Positions 37,980 to 51,831 of a DNA stretch of 64,000 bases are shown piece after piece. This stretch comes from a virus, in the IMG/VR virus record IMGVR_UViG_3300016474_000800, positions 21,141 to 85,140 of that record, one strand, 5' to 3'. The notes beneath the pieces are model-generated. The model searched no databases. It had not been told where the DNA came from and was given only the letters and a program-made list of their open reading frames with translations. Within the stretch, counting starts at the first letter, position 1, and each line of letters opens with the position of its first letter. The translations under genes and the position numbers were made by a program.

Positions 37980-40900
37980 ATGTCTCCAATAATTGGTAAC
38001 TTTGGAGTAGCAAATGTAAGAGTGTTTGGATTGTTGGGTGCAGTAACACCAACGCCTACACCAACAGTAACTCCGTCCGTTACACCTAGTGTTACACCAA
38101 CAATCACTCCAAGTTCTACCGTAACACCATCGGTTACGGTAACACCTACGCGTACTCTTACGCCGACCATTACCGTCACGCCCACCGTCACGCCGACACA
38201 CACGGTAACACCTACGAATACGGTTACTCCAACTGTAACCGTTACACCGTCGATAACACCATCGACTACGGTAACTCCATCAGTCACGATTACCCCCTCG
38301 TTTATTCCAACAACAACAATAACTCCCTCTTTGACGGTAACACCAAGTGTAACTGTTACACCAAGTATAACACCAACGTCTACTGTTACACCAACGGTAA
38401 CACCAAGTGTAACTCTTACTCCAAGCATAACGGTAACCCCTACTATAACACCATCTGTCACCGTTACTCCCACCACAACAGTAACACCTAGTGTAACAGT
38501 TACTCCGAGTATAACACCAACGGTTACCGTTACCCCATCGTTTACGGTAACACCATCTGTCACCGTTACTCCCACCACAACAGTAACACCTAGTGTAACA
38601 GTCACACCATCTATTACCGTAACACCAAGTAGTACAACTACACCCACGGTGACTGTTACTCCGTCAATTACCCCAACATTAACAATAACTCCTTCTTTGA
38701 CGGTAACACCAAGTGTAACCGTTACACCAAGTATTACGCCTACACTAACCGTTACACCGTCAGAAACGGTAACTCCGTCGGTTACTCCTTCGGTAACAAT
38801 TACGCCTACAAATACCGTAACACCTAGTATAACGGTTACTCCTTCAGTCACACCAACGGTTACTATTACTCCAAGTATAACGGTTACTCCGTCGGTCACT
38901 CCAACTACAACGGTGACCCCGACATTGACAGTGACACCTAGTGTAACAGTTACACCAACTATTACTCCGACGGCAACCATTACCCCATCAACAACGGTTA
39001 CTCCGTCTACAACCGTCACACCTTCTGTTACCACCACTCCGAGTATTACCCCAACCTCTACCGTAACACCGTCAAGTACGGTAACTCCGTCGGTTACTAT
39101 TACGTCAACCACTACCCCGAGTGTTACTGTCACACCAACATCCACTATCACACCAAGTGTTACAGTAACGCCAACAATTACTCCAACTTTAACTATTACA
39201 CCAACTAGTACTATTACCCCCACGGTAACAACAACCCCGTCTCTTACCGTTGCGGCAAGTGTTACACCAACGCCAACCATCACACCTTCTGCTACTGTTA
39301 CGCCGACAATTACTCCAACCGGTACCATTACGCCAAGTGTAACCGTCACTCCAACAATTACGGTATCGCCTAGTATTACACCAACAAATACAATTACGCC
39401 GTCTATTACAGTAACACCGACAATTACCCCAACTACGACGATTACCCCAACTGTTACTATAACACCAAGTGTAACTATAACACCATCAATTACACCAACC
39501 GTTACTATTACTCCAAGCGTAACGGTCACACCTACCTCTACAATTACACCAACGTCTACCATTACTCCATCTGTAACGGTGACGCCTAGTGTTACTCCAA
39601 CGTCAACAATTACCCCTTCTGTAACGACGACCCCAACCGTTACGGTTACGCCAAGTATTACGGTAACACCAACTATTACACCAAGTGTAACGGTAACCCC
39701 CAGCGTCACCGCAACGGTTACAATAACACCTAGTGTAACTATTACCCCGTCACTTACTCCGTCAACAACGATTACTCCTTCTGTGACGGTAACACCATCG
39801 GTAACCGTTACTCCATCTATTACACCAAGTGTTACGGTTACACCAAGTATTACCCCCACGAGAACGGTAACACCATCGGTCACAATTACGCCTTCTGTTA
39901 CAGTTACCCTGTCAATAACACCAACAAGTACTGTTACACCTTCGTCTACTATTACACCAACCGTTACAGTGACGCCTAGTGTAACGGTGACCCCTTCTAT
40001 TACTCCAACACGTACTGTTACTCCATCGGTCACAGTTACTCCGTCAATTACTGTTACACCGAGTATTACTACTACTCCATCCATCACCCCAACAGTAACG
40101 GTAACTCCAAGTATCACCCCAACGGTAACCATAACGCCGTCTACCACCGTAACACCAACTATTACACCAACGGTTACAGTTACCCCAACGGTAACCATAA
40201 CCCCGTCGTTCACCGTTACCCCATCAGTAACACCGACCCGTACTGTTACTCCGTCCGTGACAGTAACACCAAGTATTACCCCAACAAGTACTATCACGCC
40301 AACAACAACAATCACACCGTCGGTTACTGTTACCCCTTCAATTACGGCAACGCCTAGTATCACACCATCAGTAACAGTAACACCAAGTATTACGCCGACA
40401 ACAACCGTCACCCCGTCCACTACGGTTACTCCGTCGATTACTCCATCGACCACGGTAACACCGTCGTCTACTATTACTCCATCCGTAACAGTTACCCCGT
40501 CGATTACTCCAACTCGTACGGTTACTCCATCCGTTACTATCACCCCATCAATAACTCCTTCGGTAACGGTAACCCCTTCTTTGACGGTCACTCCGTCTAC
40601 GACGGTCACGCCAACTATTACACCAACACGAACGGTAACTCCGTCAGTTACAGTAACGCCGAGTATTACCCCAACCAGTACAATTACTCCTTCTGTGACG
40701 GTCACACCATCGGTAACCGTTACACCAAGTATTACCCCAACACGTACCATTACTCCGTCGGTTACTGTTACCCCGACCATCACACCAACCTCAACAGTAA
40801 CTCCATCAACAACTATTACACCAACACGCACGATTACTCCAAGTATTACCGCAACACCAAGTATTACACCATCGGTAACTGTTACTCCATCTATTACACC

Positions 40901-49450: not shown

Positions 49451-51831
49451 GTCAGTTACGAGAAATATTCACAGACGTTTTTACCAACTGGAGATTTGGT
49501 GGATGGCCAGAGAGTAAAAGTGGAGGGGGAAGTACCCTTGATGCAACAGAAGTTCTTCGGCGGCAAATCCGAGAATTAGTCAAAGACTTAGATATAAAAA
49601 CGGTAGTAGACTTACCGTGTGGTGATTTTAACTGGATGAAAGAAATCGTCTATGGATTTGAACACTACACGGGATGTGACATTGTCCCCGAATTAATTGA
49701 AAAGAATCAACGATATAGCAATTCGATTATTGATTTTAAAGTATTAGATGCGACCGTTGACGAAATTCCAACCGCAGATCTGCTTATCACTAGAGATTTG
49801 TTGGGCCACTTGTCGTTGGAAGACGGGAAAAAAGTACTTGACAATATCTTACGTTCAAATTGTAAGTATTTATTATCTACAACATGGTATAATAAAAACG
49901 ACGAGTCGTACCATTTAACACACGTTAACAAAAACAACGATGTGACGTTGGATAGACAGTGGGAAGTGGGCGCCGCGGCGTTTTATCCGGTGTGTTTGTT
50001 GAGTGAACCATTTAATCTTCAAAAACCAAAACTTTATTTGGAAGAGTCGGTCGTTGTTGATGGGTACGATTCAGGCGTTCGTAAGGGTCTTGCACTTTGG
50101 AATCTTGAAGAACTACGGAACACAAAACCAACACATACGACAGAAAACTTAACTGTAGTTACTGGGTTATGGAACATCTCTCGCGCTGGTAGATCCTTTG
50201 ATCATTATATTGAGAACTTTAGCAAGTTCTTGGATATGCCAGTCAATATGTTTATTTATGTACCGGCAGAATTAGAATATCTTGTTTGGAAAAAAAGAGA
50301 TCGGAGCAACACGCACGTTCGTACATTTGAATTAAACGATATCCGAAGTAATCTATACTCTCCGTTTTGGGAAAACACGCAAAACATACGAACAAGTGAC
50401 GCGTGGTTGAACCAGACGGGTGAGAATGGTTGGTTGAGAACCAGCCCACAGGCATCAAATGAATGGTACAATCCAATTGTTCAATCTAAGATGTTCATGT
50501 TACATGACGCCAAAGTATTGAATGTATTCGATACCGATTATTTCGTATGGTTAGACGCAGGAATCACCAATACGGTATACGAAAAGTATTTTACAGAAAA
50601 TAGATGTTTGGATAACATCATACCATTATTAGATACGTTCTTATTCTTAAGTTATCCATATGATGCGGTAAATGAAATTCATGGATTCGAATACAGTGCG
50701 TTAAATCGTTTATCAAAGCAAAAAGTCAAGTACGTGTGTCGAGGTGGATTGTTTGGTGGGCACAAGGATTATATCTCTATTGCAAACAGTACATACTACG
50801 CGTTACTTGATCAGACACTTCGTCATGGATATATGGGAACCGAAGAGAGTCTGTTTAGTATTATGGCACACTTAGAACCACATATTTATCGTCGATTTGC
50901 ATTGGATGGAAATGGTCTGGTAGTTAAGTTTGTTCAGGCGTTATTAGACGGAACCGCTCAGTTGGAAGAGGTTAGTGGTTCTGGGATTACCGTCCCCCGT
51001 AGAATCTACAATCCGTCAAAGCATAAGACATCATTATATGTGTTGGGATATAACTTTCCCATGCAGTTTAGAGCGTTAATATCCAGTTTCCAGAATCACC
51101 CAGAGTGGTTGGAGCATCCAAGAAAGATACTCATTAACAATTCCGATAACCAAGACGCAATTCGTGAATATGATGTACTGTGTAAGGAATTTGGATTCGA
51201 ACATATTATAACTGGGGAAAATCTAGGTATCAATCGTGGTCGAGTATTTGCGGCAAAACATTTCCACGAAAGTGATAGTGATTATTATTTCTTCTTTGAA
51301 GATGATATGTTTTTACATAACAAGACAACCACGACGTTTTGTAGAAATGGATTTAGACAATACATCCCCAATCTATACCGAAACGTCCATGAAATTATGT
51401 CACGGGATGGATTGGACTTCTTAAAACTGTCGTACACCGAAGTATACATGGATAACAACATTCAAGTGTCGTGGTACAACGTACCACAGGTTGTTCGTAC
51501 AGAGTTGTGGCCACACTACGACCAACTTCCGGTATCTGGACTTGACCCATTTGCTCCGCGTACCAAATTTGACAAGATCGAAGTATTTAATGAACTGTCG
51601 TACATTACGGGTGACATTTATTATGCAAACTGGCCAATGATCGTTAGTAAGGAAGGAAACAAGAAAATGTTTATTGATGTTACATGGGAACATCCGTATG
51701 AACAAACATTGATGAGTTACATGTTTCAAGAAACACGAAAAGGTAATATAAAACCAGCCGTACTACTTGCCTCACCGATCAATCACAACAGAATATTTCA
51801 TTACAGACCAGAAGAACGTAGGGAAAACTAA
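49447..51831 (+). CDS. Three-domain fusion: class I SAM methyltransferase + WlaTC/HtrL-like glycosyltransferase + GT-A-like domain
   Basis: SGGGST...DLPCGDFNWM...GCDIVPELI; VVTGLWNI...FVWLDAG...RGGLFGG...GTEESLF; YFFFEDD in the C-terminal third. Confidence 0.75.
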   Translation: MSQLREIFTDVFTNWRFGGWPESKSGGGSTLDATEVLRRQIRELVKDLDIKTVVDLPCGDFNWMKEIVYGFEHYTGCDIVPELIEKNQRYSNSIIDFKVLDATVDEIPTADLLITRDLLGHLSLEDGKKVLDNILRSNCKYLLSTTWYNKNDESYHLTHVNKNNDVTLDRQWEVGAAAFYPVCLLSEPFNLQKPKLYLEESVVVDGYDSGVRKGLALWNLEELRNTKPTHTTENLTVVTGLWNISRAGRSFDHYIENFSKFLDMPVNMFIYVPAELEYLVWKKRDRSNTHVRTFELNDIRSNLYSPFWENTQNIRTSDAWLNQTGENGWLRTSPQASNEWYNPIVQSKMFMLHDAKVLNVFDTDYFVWLDAGITNTVYEKYFTENRCLDNIIPLLDTFLFLSYPYDAVNEIHGFEYSALNRLSKQKVKYVCRGGLFGGHKDYISIANSTYYALLDQTLRHGYMGTEESLFSIMAHLEPHIYRRFALDGNGLVVKFVQALLDGTAQLEEVSGSGITVPRRIYNPSKHKTSLYVLGYNFPMQFRALISSFQNHPEWLEHPRKILINNSDNQDAIREYDVLCKEFGFEHIITGENLGINRGRVFAAKHFHESDSDYYFFFEDDMFLHNKTTTTFCRNGFRQYIPNLYRNVHEIMSRDGLDFLKLSYTEVYMDNNIQVSWYNVPQVVRTELWPHYDQLPVSGLDPFAPRTKFDKIEVFNELSYITGDIYYANWPMIVSKEGNKKMFIDVTWEHPYEQTLMSYMFQETRKGNIKPAVLLASPINHNRIFHYRPEERREN

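Follow-up and report, generated by a model that had tools for sequence, protein, structure and literature searches.

A candidate protein O-glycosylation cassette beside giant Thr/Pro-stalked fibres in a far-T4-like myovirus

We report a phage that most likely glycosylates its own fibres. The window, a 64,000-nucleotide stretch, is part of a 107-kb contig from a far-T4-like myovirus with an estimated completeness of 58%. Six genes on the + strand (43222-51831) form a tightly packed operon, with a GT60-like pair first. The operon lies within the tail-fibre module, flanked by a Thr/Pro-stalked fibre (fibre B) with its chaperone and by a second stalk protein, protein C. We give a probability of about 60% that these six genes constitute a cytoplasmic protein O-glycosylation pathway, expressed late and targeting the phage's own Thr/Pro stalks, and probably other Ser/Thr-rich ones. 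Its fibres are most likely coated with sugar by these enzymes, since GT60 and stalks are paired repeatedly among many phage fibres that are otherwise unrelated. A first-pass annotation had proposed glycosylation of the phage's own stalks. The genes it listed are all real, on the + strand and correctly placed, and its reading now gains the GT60 family and fold and the co-occurrence of GT60 with stalks; the rest is what we infer.

The glycosyltransferase cassette

The first two genes encode a putative soluble GT60-like polypeptide HexNAc-transferase of 420 aa (paralogue 1, 43222..44484, +) and a 428-aa paralogue that is 41% identical to it (44496..45782, +). Membership in GT60, suspected from motifs, was borne out by a Pfam HMM search: both match PF11397, at 7.1e-68 and 9.7e-55 (230 and 187 bits against a cut-off of 21). 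The YxLQLDSH and GEE..L.VR...GYD motifs are present in both proteins and fall on invariant alignment columns. In a 51-sequence alignment D98, H100, E210, E211, R217, G222 and H235 do not vary; D98 and H100 make up the DxH motif, and paralogue 2 has the same invariant residues. The AF2 model of paralogue 1 (pLDDT 95.9) has the Dictyostelium Skp1 GlcNAc-transferase Gnt1 as its best Swiss-Prot fold match (E 6e-22, TM 0.65), followed almost only by ppGalNAc-Ts (about 30). GT27 ppGalNAc-Ts fill the first 38 places among its PDB fold matches (E down to 2e-11). To our knowledge, all characterised GT60 enzymes glycosylate polypeptides, and we know of no characterised phage or bacterial GT60; our literature search found no paper on a phage GT60. 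GT-A families are able to switch acceptor.

The phage enzymes share PF11397, the GT-A fold, DxH and the lack of a ricin lectin domain with protist GT60 proteins (Dictyostelium Gnt1 and Gnt2, Trypanosoma cruzi TcOGNT-2), and, like Gnt1, they are predicted to be soluble and cytoplasmic. They differ in being phage-encoded, in their ~21% identity to Gnt1 and in forming a tandem paralogue pair. They also carry an extra alpha/beta C-terminal domain of ~100 aa (residues ~323-420 of paralogue 1), which gave no match to Gnt1 and which the 420-aa forms of prokaryotes and phages have in common; their activity, donor and acceptor are predictions. With the GT27 polypeptide GalNAc-transferases, which initiate mucin-type glycans in animals, they have in common the fold, the DxH and downstream His metal ligands, dense Ser/Thr/Pro candidate acceptor domains and the presence of more than one isoform, several of which act together in GT27. 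However, identity is only 12-19%, the phage enzyme falls outside GT27 by sequence, and it has no ricin-type lectin domain, membrane anchor or secretory pathway.

Two more glycosyltransferases follow the pair, as had been noticed. One is GT-B-like (45786..46709, +; Glyco_trans_1_2/GT90/RXYLT1_C-like), a call made from a weak Pfam match (0.09) and Atlas feature and structure matches (TM 0.71) only; the other is a GT8-like GT-A nucleotide-sugar transferase (46706..47761, +), called from Pfam at 0.011 and Atlas at TM 0.52-0.57. Both are presumed to extend the glycan. The predicted carbamoyltransferase is of the NodU/CmcH O-carbamoyltransferase type (47765..49450, +; Carbam_trans_C 7.8e-65 and a further match at 4e-26; phrog_1601 3.6e-126), presumably tailoring a sugar hydroxyl. 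The last gene (49447..51831, +) encodes the expected fusion of a methyltransferase with two glycosyltransferases: a SAM methyltransferase (residues 1-200), an HtrL/WlaTC-type domain (232-479; HtrL_YibB, 1.5e-11) and a GT2-like GT-A domain (520-794). In related loci, no partner accompanies GT60 more constantly than the HtrL-GT2 part.

These families suggest a pathway. The two GT60-type enzymes, with a Mn-dependent DxH...H site, would place the first sugar onto Thr/Ser hydroxyls of the stalks, a step suggested by their family and fold, by gene position and by co-occurrence. As in all characterised GT60/GT27 members, this sugar would be a HexNAc taken from a UDP-sugar. The HtrL-GT2 fusion and the GT-B-like and GT8-like enzymes may extend the glycan, and family chemistry points to capping of sugar hydroxyls by the NodU-type carbamoyltransferase and the SAM methyltransferase domain. 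We infer that glycosylation occurs, with HexNAc as the sugar and stalk Thr as the acceptor; in what order the glycan would be extended, carbamoylated and methylated is likewise conjectural, and the product may be the stiff, protease-resistant bottle-brush proposed earlier.

Stalk proteins as candidate acceptors

Fibre B (37980..42608, +; 1542 aa) is the main candidate acceptor. It consists of a conserved 22-aa N-terminal peptide, a 1233-aa (Thr/Ser-x)n stalk and a 290-aa glycine-rich tip that matches Gly_rich_2 PF21722 (1.4e-7) and phrog_4474 (1.8e-31). The run of ~1230 Thr/Pro/Ser/Val/Ile residues first described corresponds to residues 23-1255, where T/S/P/V/I/R account for 97.6% (T503, S158, P231, V169, I122, R21) and K and D are absent. 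Every second position is a hydroxy residue, prolines are spaced by 6 residues (152 times) or 4 (65 times), and Thr precedes Pro in 227 of 231 cases. The T. cruzi GT60 enzyme is Mn-dependent and uses a Thr-run peptide flanked by Pro; the phage candidate acceptors, Thr-rich with Pro nearby, resemble its test peptide KPPTTTTTTTTKPP (PMC8724618, PMC3769586). Fibre B alone would offer ~660 candidate sites. The alternating Thr-Val/Ile pattern could, alternatively, fold into a beta structure without any need for sugar.

The DNA repeat encoding the stalk, with a base period of 18 nt, is degenerate (matches of 62-83%), and the stalk is therefore taken as a selected protein feature, not as the result of recent expansion or of an assembly artefact. 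A 1227-aa antisense ORF was rejected as a gene, being a shadow of this repeat. In stand-alone homologues of 288-301 aa the same N-terminal peptide runs straight on into the tip, which makes the fibre B stalk an insertion. Directly 5' of fibre B, in the same frame and separated from it by one TAA, lies a gene for a conserved 276-aa protein (37146..37976, +; phrog_5906), a homologue of which also precedes a Thr/Pro fibre in another locus, L012; it is a possible docking partner of the N-terminal peptide. Further upstream, the large fibres at 31000-37134 are Ser/Thr/Gly-rich. The gene after fibre B, previously taken for its chaperone, is indeed a tail-fibre assembly chaperone (42634..43173, +; Phage_tail_APC 6.9e-17, phrog_4912 1.2e-19). 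We would place the stalk proteins on the virion from gene position and this chaperone only.

Two further Thr/Pro stalk proteins had been listed, and both are present. Protein A (3..4652, +), a candidate acceptor, is represented in the window by the C-terminal 1549 aa of 1898, its start lying 1044 nt upstream. A 720-aa N-terminal globular part without a PHROG match precedes Thr/Pro stalks totalling 993 residues, broken up by repeated Cys-rich modules of ~80 aa. Its gene is far from the cassette, near the terminase, which counts against fibre glycosylation. Protein C (53198..54457, +; 419 aa) has an FFPFG N-terminal module, a 271-residue stalk and a Cys-rich C-terminal domain. Its homologues come after the GT cassette in five other loci (L010, L017, L158, L315 and L440), and it is the conserved candidate acceptor of the window's lineage. 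Two small ORFs (52753..53179, +; 79 and 60 aa) share with protein C an N-terminal (F/Y)PFG(I/V)PF-SSxA motif and look like stalk-less paralogues of its anchor module. Between these and the cassette, a Ser/Thr-rich 292-aa protein without assigned function (51873..52751, +) is conserved beside the cassette in relatives; a variant motif, TATTTATG, precedes its gene.

GT60 and Thr/Pro stalks across phages

Co-occurrence of GT60-like genes with long Thr/Pro-repeat ORFs had been put forward as a check, and across phage contigs it is far above chance, often with direct adjacency. PF11397 was found in 15 of 50 viral contigs chosen solely by a Thr/Pro-coding DNA pattern; for comparison, tblastn gave matches in 4 of 50,697 phage genomes. 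Among those 15 contigs, a stalk gene lies directly upstream of GT60 in 8 distinct phages. Over 68 dereplicated GT60 loci, a stalk of at least 100 aa occupied gene rank -1 in 15/67 cases, compared with 26/851 (3%) at other ranks (p 1.4e-9), a signal partly due to related phages with common gene order. None of the 855 ORFs in 80 MCP-anchored control loci carried such a stalk. Stalk proteins encoded directly upstream of GT60 sort into 13 groups whose globular domains are unrelated. Outside the stalk we detected no similarity between the groups, so what they have in common is the stalk and not one orthologous gene. In the window's MCP lineage, a Thr/Pro protein lies beside the cassette in every GT60-positive lineage examined (the window, G011/G037, G059 and the 217-kb contig L440), and in four fully scanned GT60-negative relatives (657 kb, two complete genomes) no Thr/Pro tract exceeds 45 aa.

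Either partner can occur without the other. Roughly half of the GT60 loci lack a Thr/Pro ORF within 10 kb and have Ser/Thr/Gly-rich fibres in its place, as upstream of GT60 in L008, L009 and L011. The 307-kb phage G023 also belongs to this half, as do XacN1-type jumbo phages, in which only short PT linkers were seen, in the giant protein neighbouring GT60. Conversely, the small complete phages G030 and G044 have Thr/Pro stalks without GT60. Literature searches did not find the pairing described.

Alternative targets and known systems

The cassette could instead remodel a host glycoconjugate (O-antigen, capsule, S-layer or another envelope glycan), for example against superinfection, its location in the fibre module being incidental. 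In a comparative review of jumbo phages, clusters of several GTs with carbamoyltransferases and methylases are interpreted as diversifying the outer polysaccharides of the host or making sugar-derived metabolites (PMC7824862). HtrL/WlaTC-type proteins take their name from LPS-core and LOS loci, NodU-type carbamoyltransferases act on free oligosaccharides, and the same 420-aa GT60 occurs in many bacterial chromosomes with no phage genes in view. We nevertheless consider this unlikely, given the polypeptide acceptors of the lead enzymes' characterised relatives and nearest folds. No membrane helix is predicted in any cassette protein, and domain and helix searches found no flippase, polymerase, lipid-carrier transferase or membrane protein in the operon. 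A promoter-like motif, ATATTTATA (43176..43184, +), lies 46 nt 5' of the first GT60 gene, and the same 9-mer is found 26-37 nt 5' of the ATGs at 24161, 30030 (tube) and 30639, in line with the claim that cluster and tube gene have a common upstream motif. The contig has 11 + strand copies of TATTTATA and one on the - strand; 8 of the 11 are followed 25-52 nt later by a + strand ATG, among them those at 30030, 30639, 23541, 24161 and 43222. The operon thus carries the tube-gene motif and is not among early genes; together with the lack of membrane helices, this agrees with virion proteins being modified in the cytoplasm, late in infection. Host remodelling also leaves unexplained why stalk genes with 13 unrelated globular parts adjoin GT60.

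Equally doubtful is protein glycosylation directed elsewhere, at capsid or tail-tube subunits, the fibres at 31000-37134 or a host protein. Cassettes with 62-68% GT60 identity (L008, L009 and L011) follow Ser/Thr/Gly-rich fibres with no Thr/Pro ORF nearby, Gnt1 targets a single residue of a single folded protein, and the known cases of phage virion glycosylation concern proteins of the capsid and tail tube (Freeman et al. 2023, as cited in PMC10877033). However, the rank -1 enrichment is specific to Thr/Pro-stalk genes, GT60-negative relatives have no stalks, and the stalks resemble known GT60/GT27 acceptors in their Thr runs with Pro nearby (PMC3769586). Such targets are also compatible with stalks, and both could be modified. 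Modification of phage DNA (sugar-hypermodified bases) or synthesis of a soluble sugar-derived metabolite is highly improbable: DNA base glycosylation occurs in phages, cyanophage carbamoyltransferase and methylase clusters have been read as metabolite pathways (PMC7824862), and base-modification genes could lie off a contig that is 58% complete, but fold and family indicate polypeptide acceptors, no hydroxymethylase-type or base-modifying gene adjoins the cassette, which is part of the fibre module and carries a structural-gene motif, and the Thr/Pro association would be left unexplained.

Glycosylation of the phage's own stalks has parallels. In mycobacteriophages (Freeman et al. 2023), phage-encoded glycosyltransferases beside structural genes modify the phage's own virion proteins, as demonstrated on capsid and tail-tube subunits in actinobacteriophages. 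The system predicted here differs in its giant Thr/Pro stalks as candidate targets, its GT60-type initiator and its added carbamoyl and methyl tailoring enzymes. Mimivirus and its relatives, with their fibrils, and chloroviruses, with their capsids, similarly encode multi-enzyme glycosylation of surface fibres independent of the host secretory pathway, although those are eukaryotic viruses with other GT families and acceptors (PMC4691112, PMC9614988, PMC10117803). In our phage, the pathway would yield extended fibres of a mucin-like kind, keeping small distal domains, namely the glycine-rich tip with its own chaperone and the Cys-rich modules, far from the virion; the fibre B stalk, if extended, would measure roughly 300-400 nm.

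Thr/Pro-stalked fibre proteins of the contig

The viral contig, taken from IMG/VR, is 107,336 bp long with a CheckV completeness of 58%, and the window covers its positions 21141-85140. Counting from the window start, and with every gene treated here on the + strand, the phage has genes for terminase (9630-11210), portal (14920-16764), major capsid protein (21854-23431), sheath (27606-29942), gp19-like tube (30030-30518) and baseplate hub (56813-57577). Since its capsid protein shares 52% identity with the one from Flavobacterium phage vB_FspM_immuto and 50% with the one from Microcystis phage Mel-JY01, we regard the phage as a distant T4-like myovirus.

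The first-pass annotation had described a giant Thr/Pro fibre followed by its chaperone, with two more Thr/Pro stalk proteins elsewhere, and this is what we found. The fibre (fibre B) is the 1542-aa product of ORF 37980-42608, and the gene directly after it encodes a Phage_tail_APC tail-fibre chaperone (6.9e-17). Residues 23-1255 of fibre B form the stalk and include 503 Thr, 231 Pro, 169 Val, 158 Ser, 122 Ile and 21 Arg; Lys and Asp are absent. Autocorrelation of Thr is positive at even lags (about +0.5 to +0.67) and negative at odd lags (about -0.55), which places a hydroxy residue at every second stalk position. Pro is preceded by Thr in 227 of 231 cases and recurs at a spacing of 6 (152 times) or 4 (65 times). 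At the DNA level the stalk is a degenerate repeat with a base period of 18 nt and 62-83% matches, and because of this degeneracy we take the repeat to be the expected trace of selection on protein composition, not of recent slippage. The C-terminal 300 aa match Gly_rich_2 (PF21722) and phrog_4474.

Sequence comparison indicates that the stalk is an insertion into a compact fibre protein. Stand-alone Gly_rich_2 proteins of 288-301 aa, one of which (P0286) is encoded on a GT60-positive 217-kb relative, start with MSP(L/T)LS..GA.S.RG(F/Y).L and continue directly into the glycine-rich domain. Fibre B has the same start peptide (MSPIIGNFGVANVRVFGLLG), which it also has in common with the fibre of locus L012, then 1233 stalk residues, and then the same glycine-rich domain. 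Since the stalk-less homologues join peptide to domain, the architecture of fibre B reads as anchor peptide, spacer and tip, with the chaperone serving the tip. Directly upstream of its GT60 pair, the 217-kb relative also encodes a Gly-rich protein that lacks a stalk, together with the chaperone of that protein.

Two ORFs ahead of fibre B deserve mention. ORF 37146-37976 is in frame with it, with one TAA and one sense codon between them (37974-37982). A readthrough fusion of the two is possible; we do not favor it, given that more than one stop separates the two L012 homologues and that fibre B has a conserved N-terminal peptide of its own. Further upstream, a 1027-aa ORF of the fibre module (34051-37134) lies within a stretch of about 61% G+C, the remaining window being at about 40%; the ORF has no match in Pfam or PHROG and looks like a segment newly acquired or swapped within a fibre gene.

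Protein A (3-4652, starting before the window; 1898 aa) has 993 stalk residues with repeated Cys-rich modules between them; its N-terminal 720 aa and several neighboring large ORFs gave no match in PHROG and Pfam searches. Protein C (53198-54457) combines a 271-residue stalk with a Cys-rich C-terminal domain. Together, the three proteins of the contig contain 2519 stalk residues, and a dense, acceptor-type Ser/Thr/Pro domain is thus encoded along with an initiator-type transferase. The Cys-rich modules measure about 80 aa and recur where stalk segments end (residues ~1150-1240 and ~1400-1480 of protein A; 54200-54457 in protein C), and many stalk proteins adjoining GT60 in other phages likewise end in small Cys-containing C-terminal domains; these are likely distal binding modules. 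Protein C is the third of three tandem ORFs, after the stalk-less 52753-52992 (79 aa) and 52997-53179 (60 aa), that have the N-terminal motif (F/Y)PFG(I/V)PF(T/S)SS(F/Y)A in common. The same motif opens the P/T-rich protein adjoining GT60 in contig G059 (locus L315) and the protein C homologue of the 217-kb relative, and it is probably a common virion-docking module. The gene at 4639-8403, directly after protein A and ahead of the terminase, has a multi-domain product of 1254 aa that includes a cytidylyltransferase-like domain (PF01467, 3.3e-6) and also gives a weak zincin-like match; the 217-kb relative has a 1224-aa homologue in the same place.

The cassette and its lead enzymes

The cassette comprises six genes (43222-51831), which are 3-11 nt apart or overlap, and is flanked by the fibre and chaperone genes on one side and by stalk protein C on the other. 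A megablast search with it against cultured phages gave no match. The gene content proposed in the first-pass annotation held up in Pfam HMM searches, less firmly for two of the genes. The tandem lead pair (43222-44484 and 44496-45782) matches PF11397 at 7.1e-68 (230 bits) and 9.7e-55 (187 bits), with a cut-off of 21 bits. The two further glycosyltransferases, a GT-B-like protein (third gene) and a GT8-like GT-A protein (fourth gene), have a weaker basis: Pfam E-values of 0.09 and 0.011, and Atlas matches by feature and structure with TM 0.71 and about 0.55, respectively. The fifth gene encodes a carbamoyltransferase of the NodU/CmcH type and the sixth (49447-51831) a methyltransferase-HtrL-GT2-like fusion.

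By every in silico criterion, namely sequence, fold and motifs, the lead enzymes belong to GT60, and catalytic activity is predicted. The sequence profile places them in GT60/PF11397, and PF11397 was recovered again in the genome search. In an alignment of 51 sequences that includes both paralogues, D98, H100, H235, E210, E211 and R217 are invariant, and the DxH motif is present. The AlphaFold2 model of the lead enzyme has a mean pLDDT of 95.9. Its closest Swiss-Prot fold is the Dictyostelium Skp1 hydroxyproline GlcNAc-transferase Gnt1 (Q8T1C6; E 6.3e-22, TM 0.65), followed by about thirty polypeptide GalNAc-transferases, and the top 38 matches in the PDB fold search are all GT27 polypeptide GalNAc-transferases. 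Searching PDB by sequence, with protein P0003 and the 51-sequence profile as queries, found no GT60 structure; matches to fatty-acid-binding proteins at E 0.35-1 are noise. Published accounts treat GT60 as the counterpart of GT27 in protists, without the ricin domain, and describe the Trypanosoma cruzi enzyme as Mn2+-dependent, with KPPTTTTTTTTKPP as its acceptor (PMC8724618, PMC3769586). As in GT60 and unlike in GT27, which the C-terminal ricin-type lectin domain sets apart, Pfam finds no such domain in the phage lead enzymes. Both paralogues have a separate extra alpha/beta domain (residues ~323-420) outside the match to Gnt1. A complex prediction with P0003, Mn and a 41-residue stalk peptide (residues 300-340) scored 0.00, which is evidence neither way. 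Elsewhere in the family, many members are giant (P0128-P0141; 800-2460 aa, two to four GT60 domains), and contig G023 encodes a fused double GT60 of 897 aa.

Association of stalks with GT60 genes

To look beyond this contig, we used a degenerate 36-nt pattern coding for TPS(V/I)T(V/I)TPS(V/I)TP, which matched more than 120 viral stretches. PF11397 was present on 15 of 50 viral contigs picked by the pattern, most of them fragments; for comparison, tblastn gave a match in 4 of 50,697 cultured phage genomes. Among those 15 contigs, a stalk ORF lies directly upstream of GT60 in 8 distinct phages. An alignment-based scan then found at least 585 GT60-encoding stretches in IMG/VR, and 87 loci were analyzed (68 after dereplication at 90% identity). 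A stalk of at least 100 aa occupies the position directly upstream of GT60 in 15/67 loci versus 26/851 ORFs (3%) at other ranks (binomial p 1.4e-9), with the reservation that many of these loci share ancestry and gene order and that most contigs are fragments. The co-occurrence of GT60 with long Thr/Pro ORFs expected in the first-pass annotation is thus seen across viral contigs. Within 10 kb, 31 of the 68 dereplicated loci have a stalk ORF of at least 100 aa, and in a sub-group with the order HtrL-GT, GT60, a convergent stalk gene adjoins the opposite end of the cassette.

With the stalks masked, 30 cassette-flanking stalk proteins fall into 19 groups without BLAST similarity, and the directly upstream ones into 13, so the recurring neighbor is the stalk and not one orthologous gene. 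GT60 and the HtrL-GT2 protein make up the constant core of the cassette; its carbamoyltransferase, methyltransferase and remaining transferases vary. In the window's capsid lineage, all GT60-positive lineages examined carry a Thr/Pro protein adjoining the cassette: the window, G011/G037, G059 and the 217-kb contig with its protein C homologue. The strict DNA pattern undercounts, as G059, although pattern-negative, encodes a P21/T21 protein immediately ahead of GT60, and for this reason controls were scanned by composition. Across 855 ORFs (1.06 Mb) in 80 capsid-gene-anchored loci of this lineage, no stalk ORF of at least 100 aa was found, and four GT60-negative relatives scanned whole (657 kb, two complete genomes) had no tract above 45 aa. 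Bacterial loci were kept out of the statistics because high-GC genomes yield many spurious Ser/Thr/Pro-rich alternative-frame ORFs.

Several neighboring genes were noted along the way. The 217-kb relative encodes an NAD-dependent sugar epimerase/dehydratase fused to O-FucT (PF10250; L440:19951-21263), downstream of both its GT60 cassette and its protein C homologue. Protein O-glycosylation is known from the O-FucT family as well, and the fusion adds a nucleotide-sugar step. In Gemmatimonadota MAGs, a protein of about 250 aa directly upstream of chromosomal GT60 + HtrL-GT (L376:9212-9952 and L369:8438-9232) has an N-terminal domain that is PqqD-like by eye, a hydrophobic segment and a Thr/Pro tail. 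In Azospirillum lipoferum Sp59b, a chromosomal GT60 homologue has a sheath-like gene 2 kb away (L431:13067-15172; 23% identical to the sheath of the window), a hint of a connection with a phage-tail-like particle or prophage.

The link between stalk and GT60 is not obligate. The 307-kb contig G023 has no stalk near GT60, the longest tract of the nearly complete 60-kb contig G056 has just 129 residues, and small complete phages have stalks and lack GT60. In the jumbo phages XacN1 and Xoo-sp13, GT60 adjoins a carbamoyltransferase, and a baseplate-adjacent protein of 3300 aa is encoded about 10 kb from GT60; these phages lend the link no support because that protein has two short PT linkers and no stalk. 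In three close relatives (L008, L009, L011), the upstream fibres are Ser/Thr/Gly-rich and the Thr/Pro pattern is absent from the contig. Such fibres, along with capsid and tube, are possible alternative protein targets of the cassette, and modification of these may coexist with that of stalks.

Proposed glycosylation of the stalks

The best explanation of the cassette, to which we assign a probability of roughly 0.6, is phage-encoded mucin-type O-glycosylation: the GT60-headed cassette would sugar-coat the phage's own Thr/Pro fibre stalks. This had been the first-pass proposal. The family and fold of the lead enzymes and the stalk association speak for it, but the association is looser than an obligate pairing. 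The PTVT-repeat spacer of Dictyostelium PsA is a GT60 substrate; we do not count this as evidence.

Multi-glycosyltransferase clusters of phages have been interpreted as remodeling host-surface polysaccharide (PMC7824862), and the cassette could in principle do the same. We consider this improbable, since the lead enzymes have the family and fold of polypeptide transferases, the stalk association points elsewhere, and membrane or lipid-carrier parts are missing from the cassette: none of its proteins has a membrane helix (no 19-residue window with a Kyte-Doolittle mean above 1.6) or a Pfam or PHROG match to a Gtr-type protein, flippase, polymerase or initiating phosphotransferase. A structural-gene motif ahead of the cassette also argues against it. 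The motif TATTTATA occurs in 11 copies on the + strand and 1 on the - strand, with 8 copies 25-52 nt ahead of + strand starts. Its longer form, ATATTTATA, lies upstream of 24161, the tube gene, 30639 and the first GT60 gene, in agreement with the upstream motif that had been reported as common to cassette and tube gene. From their placement, we read these motifs as a putative promoter of the structural-gene class, presumably with late timing. The T4 late promoter TATAAATA was considered and rejected, as it shows no coding-strand enrichment and its five matches are the reverse complement of the + strand motif. Modification of DNA or of a metabolite by the cassette is unlikely.

Self-glycosylation of virions has so far been described for a few mycobacteriophages, on capsid and tail tube (Freeman et al. 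2023, as cited in PMC10877033); the likeness lies in phage glycosyltransferase genes among structural genes. Fibril self-glycosylation has also been described in giant eukaryotic viruses (PMC4691112, PMC9614988, PMC10117803). Our literature searches found no relevant work on GT60/PF11397 in phages or on threonine-rich fibres with glycosyltransferases, and no GT60-initiated cassette paired with giant Thr/Pro stalks. If the proposed stalk glycosylation is true, this would be the first phage O-glycan initiation by a GT60/GT27-type polypeptide transferase, and tailed phages would have their first example of mucin-like, glycosylated fibre stalks. Very common unannotated phage genes (GT60, methyltransferase-HtrL-GT2 fusions) would acquire a function, and it would be explained how phages afford kilobase-long low-complexity Thr/Pro ORFs. 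Enzymology and glyco-engineering would gain polypeptide HexNAc-transferases that are soluble and easy to express. The system would also have a bearing on how eukaryotic mucin-type glycosylation arose, and raise a question of host recognition by very long flexible or stiffened glycosylated fibres with small distal binding modules.

More tentatively, at a little under even odds, mucin-type O-glycosylation may be widespread among prokaryotic viruses rather than a eukaryotic invention found in one odd phage, with a minimal GT60 + HtrL-GT cassette, counted on at least 585 IMG/VR and at least 582 bacterial genome stretches, that accompanies and glycosylates stalks insertable into compact fibre proteins. 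Protist and animal initiators of mucin glycosylation would then have their nearest prokaryotic kin in the soluble phage and bacterial enzymes, and phages would build sugar-coated fibres hundreds of nanometres long, fibre B being a 290-aa adhesin stretched to 1542 aa.
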